Assembly (NCBI GenBank): GCA_000004985.1
Contig: GG739493.1
DNA: 1,227 bases
From: Naegleria gruberi
Taxonomy: Eukaryota
Direction: 5' to 3' (one strand)
Position numbers and translations under genes: made by a program. The notes below the pieces were generated by a model. The model saw nothing but the letters and a program-made list of their open reading frames with translations, was not told where the DNA came from and did not search any database. Positions 1-1,227 of the stretch are shown here, piece after piece (positions within the stretch are counted from its first letter, which is position 1; each line of letters opens with the position of its first letter).

Positions 1-1211
1 TAGTGCTTTAATAATTCACCAAGGTCATACTTATCACCATTCAGACATTGCTGTAAGGTAAGCATACAAACAGCTTTGTAACATTCAAACAAGGGCCAAT
101 ATTCTATTTTCATTCCACAAAGGTATTCTAATGGTGTTTTTTCACATAGTGGAATGTTTGACAATTCCAGCTCTGTAATATTCTTTTTTTTCAACCATTC
201 AACGAAAGAAATACCATTCGTTTTCTTTTTCATTGGTGGTTCATTGTCTTGTTTTTCTTCATAATATTTTCTTTTCTTATTTTCTATTTCTTCTCTCTTT
301 CTTCTTGATTCTTGATTCTCATCTTGTTTTCTTTTCCTCTCTTCTTCGATCCTCCTCTTCTCCTCTTTTGCAATCTTTATTGCTTCTTCTTTCTTTCTTT
401 TTTCTTCTTCATTCCTCTTCTTCTCCTCTTGTTTTCTTTTTTCCTCTTCTTTCTTTTTCCTCTCTTCTTCAAGTCTACTCTCCTCTTCCTCATCGCATCT
501 ATCATCTATATCATTCATATATCCCACATCTTCATTGTCGTTAATCTCTGTTTCATCATTTTCCTTCTCATCATTGTTTTCGTCATACCATTGAAATATT
601 CCTATGTTTTTCTGAGAGCCATTATTTCCCAAAGTCATTAGAAATCTTTTTGGAGATGTCTTTGGATCTAATAGCCAATATTTTTCACCAAGTGATACAC
701 CAGTAGATAACATCTTAGACCCGCTAATTATGATTTCGTTCTTTGTTTTGGTAAGGTCCTTAATATGGATAGAATAATCTTTCAGAAATTCCTTAATCTC
801 TTTCGAATACTTTGTATCACATGTTGTGGAGGAGATGGCTAAAAAATCAATGCCAGTCCTAACACATAGTGTCCCGTTCTCGTCTGTAATTGAATCAGGA
901 CAGTAAATCACAAACTCATGATTTTCTCTACCCAGTTTGAAAGGTTTTCCTATTCTATAAACAAAAGACATGGGATATTTCGCTATTCCTACAATTTCAG
1001 AAGTTGGAGAAGCAACCTTAACATTATTTAGACCGTCAATAAATTCAGAAAAGTCTAACTCAATAGAATACGCATCTTCTTGCTTTGAATATTTTGTGTA
1101 CCATTTTTCTCCGGTACCTGGTTGGTACACACCAAAAGGAAATACTATTGGAGATGAAAAAGAATTACCAGTAATCACAATAACAAAATCATAGTCATGT
1201 CTATTTTTTAA
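1..1211 (-). CDS. Partial CDS on the minus strand for an uncharacterized protein with a central Glu/Lys/Arg-rich charged segment. It is probably a nuclear gene of an AT-rich eukaryote such as a budding yeast. The reading frame is open from the in-frame stop TAG at +1212..1214 (minus sense) down past position 1, so the C-terminal end lies outside the window. The first in-frame Met codon is at +969..971, and the true start is unresolved (see findings).
   Basis: I translated the reverse complement by hand, using codons whose last minus-sense base falls at + positions divisible by 3. About 403 sense codons are uninterrupted: none of the + triplets in register 3,6,9... up to 1211 is tta, cta or tca. 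The translation begins LKNRHDYDFVIVITGNSFSSPIVFPFGVYQPGTGEKWYTKYSKQEDAYSIELDFSEFIDGLNNVKVASPTSEIVGIAKYPMSFVYRIGKPFKLGRENHEFVIYCPDSITDENGTLCVRTGIDFLAISSTTCDTKYSKEIKEFLKDYSIHIKDLTKTKNEIIISGSKMLSTGVSLGEKYWLLDPKTSPKRFLMTLGNNGSQKNIGIFQWYDENNDEKENDETEINDNEDVGYMNDIDDRCDEEEESRLEEERKKKEEEKRKQEEKKRNEEEKRKKEEAIKIAKEEKRRIEEERKRKQDENQESRRKREEIENKKRKYYEEKQDNEPPMKKKTNGISFVEWLKKKNITELELSNIPLCEKTPLEYLCGMKIEYWPLFECYKAVCMLTLQQCLNGDKYDLGELLKH and continues. The composition looks like a protein, with alternating hydrophobic and charged stretches. Arg is encoded only by AGA and AGG. An open frame of this length by chance in AT-rich DNA is very unlikely. An antisense ORF (+970..1194) that is also open is typical of real coding sequence. 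Confidence 0.8.
184..191 (-). repeat. A8 homopolymer on the coding strand (T8 on the + strand). It lies inside the CDS and encodes part of LKKKN. Runs like this are prone to slippage.
   Basis: The + strand reads t-c-tttttttt-c, with the T run at 184..191. The frame reads ttg aaa aaa aag aat. Confidence 0.9.
222..497 (-). repeat. Low-complexity coding segment. On the + strand it is a polypyrimidine (CT-rich) tract and on the coding strand it is GA-rich. It encodes an E/K/R-rich charged region of about 90 residues that could form a single alpha-helix or coiled coil. It contains an exact 16-mer direct repeat, ttttcctctcttcttc, at +332..347 and +455..470 (123 nt = 41 codons apart), and a tandem 7-mer cttgatt x2 at +304..317.
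   Basis: The + strand at 233..545 is almost free of purines and is built from tcttc, tcctc and ttttc units. The minus-strand translation reads DEEEESRLEEERKKKEEEKRKQEEKKRNEEEKRKKEEAIKIAKEEKRRIEEERKRKQDENQESRRKREEIENKKRKYYEEKQDNEPPMKKK. I found the two 16-mers by counting bases directly. They encode EEERKRK and EEERKKK. Confidence 0.8.
480..587 (-). other. Acidic Asp/Asn/Glu-rich segment, YDENNDEKENDETEINDNEDVGYMNDIDDRCDEEEE, that sits immediately N-terminal to the E/K/R-rich block. The two together form a charge-segregated stretch: acidic first, then mixed and basic.
   Basis: Direct translation of the minus strand. YDENND maps to +570..587 and CDEEEE maps to +480..497. Confidence 0.7.
969..971 (-). 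other. First in-frame Met codon of the long minus-strand ORF (ATG read on the minus strand, local context aaaagacATGg). It is a candidate start codon, but 80 codons of open, protein-like frame lie upstream of it.
   Basis: The + triplet cat at 969..971 is in the ORF register. No other in-frame cat occurs in this register between 972 and 1211. Confidence 0.35.
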
Positions 1212-1227
1212 CTACCAAATAACATTC

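Follow-up and report, generated by a model that had tools for sequence, protein, structure and literature searches.

Where does translation begin in a gene whose reading frame runs open for a long way ahead of its first in-frame methionine and then stops close to the edge of an assembled scaffold? The question is raised by the window analysed here, which represents in full one unplaced scaffold, 1,227 bp long, from the draft genome of Naegleria gruberi NEG-M; its GC content of ~0.33 equals the 33% reported for that genome (PMC8296547, Table 2). On the minus strand, to which all features below belong, a continuous open frame of 403 codons (1..1211) begins after an in-frame TAG at 1214..1212 and is still open where the scaffold ends on its low-coordinate side, so that the gene lacks its 3′ end as well as its start. 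The first in-frame ATG occupies 971..969 (context atatcccATGt), and exactly 80 codons (1211..972), translating as LKNRHDYDFVIVITGNSFSSPIVFPFGVYQPG...KYP, separate it from the TAG. This stretch had been picked out in a sequence-only reading of the scaffold, all of whose coordinates and peptides for it proved correct; three features escaped it: an ATG at 1225..1223, a strong acceptor-like site at 1146/1145, and the exit of the frame at the other end of the window.

The locus is already known and is recorded in RefSeq as a partial predicted protein. The N-terminal part of the minus-strand frame product is 100% identical to the 374-aa XP_002667995.1 (GenBank EFC35251.1), which is labelled "predicted protein, partial [Naegleria gruberi]" and forms a singleton cluster. 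This model spans 1144..20, with full codons from 1142 to 21, and is flanked by tccaatAG/TA on the 5′ side and CTTG/GTgaat on the 3′ side (the slash marks the exon boundary). It ends at a donor-like site, CTTG/GTGAAT, whose GT lies at 19..18, and the frame is still open beyond it to window base 3. To judge from the AG and GT flanks, the model would represent a single internal exon, 1144..20, with both neighbouring introns assumed to lie off the scaffold; its boundaries are gene-finder output from the same sequence and are not independent support for the splice sites. The record thus describes the same locus in the manner of the partial gene models that arise where scaffolds of draft eukaryotic assemblies end, being flagged partial, bounded by AG and GT and starting inside the 80-codon stretch, but it omits codons 1–23 of that stretch, which a codon-usage test suggests may be coding too. 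Within the frame, a charged, purine-rich middle segment (566..261) has a low-complexity core rich in Lys, Glu and Arg and built of imperfect 60–63-nt tandem repeats. The scaffold carries the middle of one lineage-specific (orphan) protein-coding gene.

The 80 open codons had been considered unlikely to arise by chance, and the calculations bear this out. Only 0.15% of 200,000 shuffles of the 240 nt were stop-free, the analytic probability of 80 open codons was 0.0006 under the window composition and 0.0018 under the local composition, and across these positions the other two minus-strand frames contained 7 and 10 stops. Codon usage was scored with a model trained on the unambiguous, non-repetitive codons 81–215 and 331–403 of the same gene. 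Codons 24–80 (1142..972) scored +0.316 bits per codon in frame versus −0.38 and −0.58 in the other two frames; 3000 stop-free shuffles averaged −0.146 ± 0.127, and not one of them attained the observed score. The sequence upstream of the methionine at 971 therefore truly codes for protein, over 1144..972 at the least, and given both its openness and its codon usage, Met 971 is an internal residue that should not serve as the start in annotation. The remaining codons 1–22 (1211..1146) are ambiguous. Taken together they scored +0.161 bits per codon (p = 0.06 versus stop-free shuffles), codons 6–22 (1196..1146) scored +0.293 bits per codon (p = 0.024 by the same comparison), and codons 1–5, upstream of an out-of-frame ATG at 1198, summed to about −1.4 bits and were not coding-like. 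The RefSeq 5′ boundary at 1144 may be ~20 codons too short.

Searches for relatives returned little beyond the protein itself. A word-indexed search of 5.8 billion clustered proteins found only the protein, an exhaustive HMMER search of 1.84 billion representative proteins found the protein and one bacterial protein of fibronectin type III (FN3) repeats, which is not a usable homologue, and neither the JGI metagenome contigs nor the viral contigs of IMG/VR yielded a relative; a search with the C-terminal 88 aa returned nothing. Since these databases contain no orthologues, orthologous N-termini cannot decide the start. The bacterial match, a 3,776-aa giant protein (P0002) of FN3-like repeats, obtained its E value of 9e-5 as the sum of 12 near-identical repeat matches of 3–7 bits each to the same 36–38 residues. 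A profile of 17 repeat units from P0002 scored 13.6 bits versus at most 6.0 bits in 2000 shuffles, a comparison for which the partner was picked post hoc from 1.8 billion proteins. The resemblance of the 38-residue stretch IELDFSEFIDGLNNVKVASPTSEIVGIAKYPMSFVYRI is to the second half of the beta-sandwich repeat, with its conserved Y-x-YRV segment, and the alignment does not extend to the first half of the domain; each repeat contributes only 3–7 bits, and the Pfam family fn3 (PF00041), a domain of ~85 residues, gave no match even at E ≤ 10. The FN3-like motif, which lies across Met 971, agrees with the codon evidence and may be taken as a lead only. Pfam otherwise returned sub-threshold or low-complexity matches: CDC45, on the Lys/Glu-rich stretch, VWC2L, and MSV199 (PF10553), which reached 16.1 bits (E = 0.014, profile positions 46–119 of 132), below its gathering threshold of 22.4 bits, and received no support from PHROGs or PDB sequence searches. 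PHROGs and Rfam gave nothing, and the PDB sequence search nothing meaningful. Single-sequence AlphaFold2 predictions covered the N-terminal 215 aa (pLDDT 32) and the C-terminal 90 aa (pLDDT 46), and these values were uninformative on whether residues 1–80 fold with the rest.

We tentatively favour, at somewhat below even confidence, the explanation that the window has no in-frame initiation codon because the gene's first coding exon is located past position 1227, where the scaffold ends. The missing exon would be separated from the visible one by a spliceosomal intron whose 3′ splice site would be either the AG at 1146/1145, as implied by the partial RefSeq model, or the TAG at 1214..1212. The ATG at 1198 and the T4 run next to it would then be incidental features of AT-rich sequence, and the gene would simply be cut by the edge of an assembly fragment, with nothing mechanistically unusual about it. 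A 5′ intron with its first exon outside the window was among the possibilities raised from the sequence at the outset. That proposal is implied by the annotation, in which an exon at 1144..20 is bounded by AG and GT and the AG at 1146/1145 has the best tract; what did not hold was its attribution to a yeast gene, and the accompanying yeast framing, with TACTAAC signals and a "yeast-like" start context, was wrong for DNA that comes from Naegleria gruberi.

The candidate acceptor, ttctttttcatctccaatAG/TA (1164..1145), has pyrimidines at 12 of 15 tract positions, which ranks it first among 106 minus-strand AG sites; the first base of the RefSeq exon follows directly. The combination expected of a 3′ splice site, a YAG behind a pyrimidine-rich tract, is present at AG 1146/1145, where ttctttttcatctccaatAG ends. 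Splice sites were judged here against the general eukaryotic consensus, which may not be that of Naegleria; the literature searched yielded no Naegleria-specific splice-site consensus. In addition, the 71-nt segment 1215..1145 had a GC content of 0.27 and a T content of 0.42, versus a GC content of 0.34–0.35 in the exon. Only 82 nt of scaffold lie beyond the acceptor, and the mean intron length in N. gruberi is 203 bp, with 1.7 exons per gene (PMC8296547), so a donor located off the scaffold would be unremarkable. The arrangement recalls 5′-proximal spliceosomal introns of intron-poor protists such as N. gruberi (PMC8296547), in that an AG follows a pyrimidine tract, the putative intron is lower in GC and the first coding exon could plausibly be short or missing. 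It differs from them in that the first exon is not in the window and the intron is proposed from a candidate acceptor.

Two observations speak against an acceptor at 1145. Codons 6–22, which would then be intronic, carry the codon bias of the gene, and codons 1–22 would all have to stay open within an intron, for which the chance is ~0.13–0.15. The weak codon signal in codons 6–22 fits an acceptor placed further upstream, for example at the TAG at 1214..1212 (tatttggtAG/TTAAAA), or else a start at ATG 1198 combined with a one-base indel. The TAG could simply be a stop codon that falls within a UTR or an intron, or it could supply the YAG at which an intron ends; as an alternative acceptor it has a modest pyrimidine tract and would leave 13 nt of putative intron visible. 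The intron-like composition and acceptor on one side and the coding-like codons 6–22 on the other are weak, conflicting lines, neither of which is decisive. The weights that we give to the different start models are judgements from weak, partly conflicting signals rather than computed posteriors.

The explanation that fares next best, possible although rather doubtful, is that the gene starts at ATG 1198..1196 and that the scaffold is without one base between 1196 and 1176, most plausibly a fifth T in the run at 1188..1185. Either faulty base calling or assembly would have dropped the base within the final 40 nt of a scaffold that is tiny and of low coverage, or the sequence would represent a genuine frameshift allele. 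As the sequence-only reading had described, this ATG (context aaaatagacATGa) is one base off the main frame, at an offset of +1, and opens a mini-ORF (1198..1175; ATG ACT ATG ATT TTG TTA TTG TGA) that encodes MTMILLL before terminating at the TGA at 1177..1175. The proposed repair also works as described: lengthening the T4 run (A4 on the plus strand) by a single T joins the ATG to the main frame and gives MTMIFVIVITGNSFSSPIVFPF..., open to the window end. With the T placed at 1185..1189, the product is MTMIFVIVITGNSF..., a start-to-end ORF that likewise meets no stop before the window ends. The homopolymer is only the most plausible site, since the frames would be joined just as well by a +1 insertion or a 2-nt deletion anywhere between 1196 and 1175.

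Splicing offers no other way to use this ATG. Among all GT/GC..AG pairs in the window there were 0 solutions for an intron joining ATG 1198 to the long frame, and ATG 1198 can therefore be the start only if a base is missing. In the main frame, coding-like usage, though weak, is seen in codons 6–22 and not in codons 1–5, which lie upstream of the ATG, and the ATG itself is preceded by an A-rich leader with a purine at −3; an off-frame ATG early in an AT-rich stretch is common, however, and five off-frame ATGs lie within the 80 codons. Sanger assemblies are least accurate at contig ends. The comparison with homopolymer indel errors and frameshift alleles near contig ends holds insofar as one extra T in T4, some 40 nt short of the scaffold end, would give back an ORF that begins with ATG, but the run is a short one of only four bases, and the indel is a candidate proposed from the consensus sequence. 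The repaired protein would begin MTMIFVIVITGNSFSS-PIVFPFG..., with a short hydrophobic N-terminus resembling a signal peptide. Mean Kyte-Doolittle hydropathy was 3.1 over the first 9 residues, and MTMIFVIVITGNSFSS combines this hydrophobic core with S-F-S before Pro and an n-region devoid of positive charge, as judged without a trained predictor. Against this, T-rich sequence would encode a hydrophobic peptide whichever model applies, and the remainder of the protein, whose core is charged and rich in Lys, Glu and Arg, does not have the look of a secreted product. The indel would also reduce the window's best acceptor-like site to a coincidence. A homopolymer indel, which had been put forward together with the 5′ intron, is thus viable but is not the explanation we favour.

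It is unlikely that the fragment is a decaying or non-functional copy, such as a pseudogene, a leftover haplotype or a repeat fragment, in which the start has truly been destroyed. The scaffold is tiny and unplaced, an in-frame start is absent, and the protein forms a cluster by itself and lacks homologues even among other Naegleria, all of which such a copy would accommodate. Nevertheless, 403 codons are open in 33%-GC DNA with their codon bias intact, and the protein searches found no parent gene or paralogue.

A start lying wholly inside the window, through a very small first exon, is more improbable still. The ATG at 1225..1223 sits two bases from the contig end. It is followed by GT dinucleotides at 1215/1214 and 1212/1211 (the whole arrangement spanning 1225..1211), which would define a 10-nt (or 13-nt) first exon (ATGTTATTTG) and a 71-nt (or 68-nt) GT..AG intron ending at AG 1145, with a protein that begins MLFVFPFGVYQPG...; the two spliced products read MLFVFPFGVY... 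or MLFGIFPFG.... An exhaustive GT/GC..AG search gave these in-frame, stop-free solutions, their acceptor is the same as in the RefSeq model, and the intron would have the low GC (0.27), high T (0.42) and pyrimidine tract before the AG already noted. However, 39% of shuffles of the upstream 63 nt gave an equally valid ATG..GT, which is no support beyond chance, and the donor GTAGTT matches GTAAGT/GTATGT at 4 of 6 positions. The scaffold would moreover have to end 2 nt before a start codon, and the intron would conflict with the coding-like codon usage of 1196..1146.

Hardly credible is the remaining possibility raised at the outset, that translation begins at Met 971 and the 80 upstream codons are an untranslated leader open by chance. 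Its sole support is that Met 971 is the first in-frame ATG. It is rejected by the codon score of codons 24–80, whose strong in-frame bias no shuffle matched, and the RefSeq model also treats this sequence as coding, taking in 57 codons upstream of the methionine; the probability of the upstream frame being open is 0.0006–0.002, the context cccATGt is poor, with a pyrimidine at −3, and the weak FN3-like motif spans the residue. Of next to no probability is a programmed −1 ribosomal slip on the AUU-UUG/U4 run, within the first five codons of a gene that starts at ATG 1198 and with the scaffold sequence correct, which would yield a Naegleria-specific protein with a signal-peptide-like leader, and the U4 run forms no canonical X XXY YYZ slippery heptamer.

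The gene being an orphan, its start can be settled only by transcripts, reads or a better assembly; RNA-seq data for N. gruberi are available under PRJEB23822 (PMC6142364). No likely outcome would bring new biology, and the importance of the locus is limited to annotation quality. In this N. gruberi gene, the missing start codon is an ordinary edge effect of draft assembly and annotation, not a new biological feature.

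Within the 403-codon open frame that runs along the minus strand (1..1211), the first in-frame ATG, Met 971, falls inside a 38-residue fibronectin-III-like motif, IELDFSEFIDGLNNVKVASPTSEIVGIAKYPMSFVYRI (about 951..1064, minus strand; residues 50-87), which is similar to the latter half of the fibronectin-III-like repeats found in a bacterial giant protein. Taken individually, this likeness is weak (13.6 bits), and the Pfam fn3 family gave no match. Directly antisense to the 80 open codons upstream of Met 971, the plus strand carries an ATG-initiated ORF of 74 aa (970..1194); the simplest reading is that the coding frame gives rise to it as a shadow ORF.

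Downstream of the motif, residues 131-200 (about 612..821, minus strand) gave a Pfam match to MSV199 (PF10553), which large DNA viruses are known to carry; the alignment extends over positions 46-119 of the 132-position profile. The match scored 16.1 bits (E = 0.014), below the gathering score of 22.4, and searches of PHROGs and the PDB gave it no backing; at this sub-threshold level, the profile similarity hints at a possible virus-related origin.

The middle of the frame is occupied by a charged, purine-rich segment (261..566, minus strand), the core of which (about 283..491; EEERKKKEEEKRKQEEKKRNEEEKRKKEE...) is rich in Lys, Glu and Arg and is encoded by imperfect tandem repeats with a unit of 60-63 nt, in which the purine strand skew is extreme. 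This segment could fold as a charged single alpha-helix or as a coiled linker. Pfam also matched CDC45 here, but below threshold, and the match was judged spurious.

The C-terminal 90 residues (3..272, minus strand) contain five Cys and were predicted to be all-helical at low confidence (pLDDT 46), and the search with this region gave no homologue. The RefSeq model (XP_002667995.1) ends at CTTG|GTGAAT, with the GT at 19..18 on the minus strand, past which the frame stays open (GELLKH) as far as the scaffold's final base (1..23, minus strand). The scaffold end truncates the C-terminal domain.

In a catalogue of about 15 billion sequences, this protein forms a singleton, which is unusual for an intact ORF of 400 codons, and no second copy was found in the other Naegleria genomes or assemblies of that collection. 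Given this isolation, the scaffold could possibly represent strain-specific, fast-evolving or foreign DNA.
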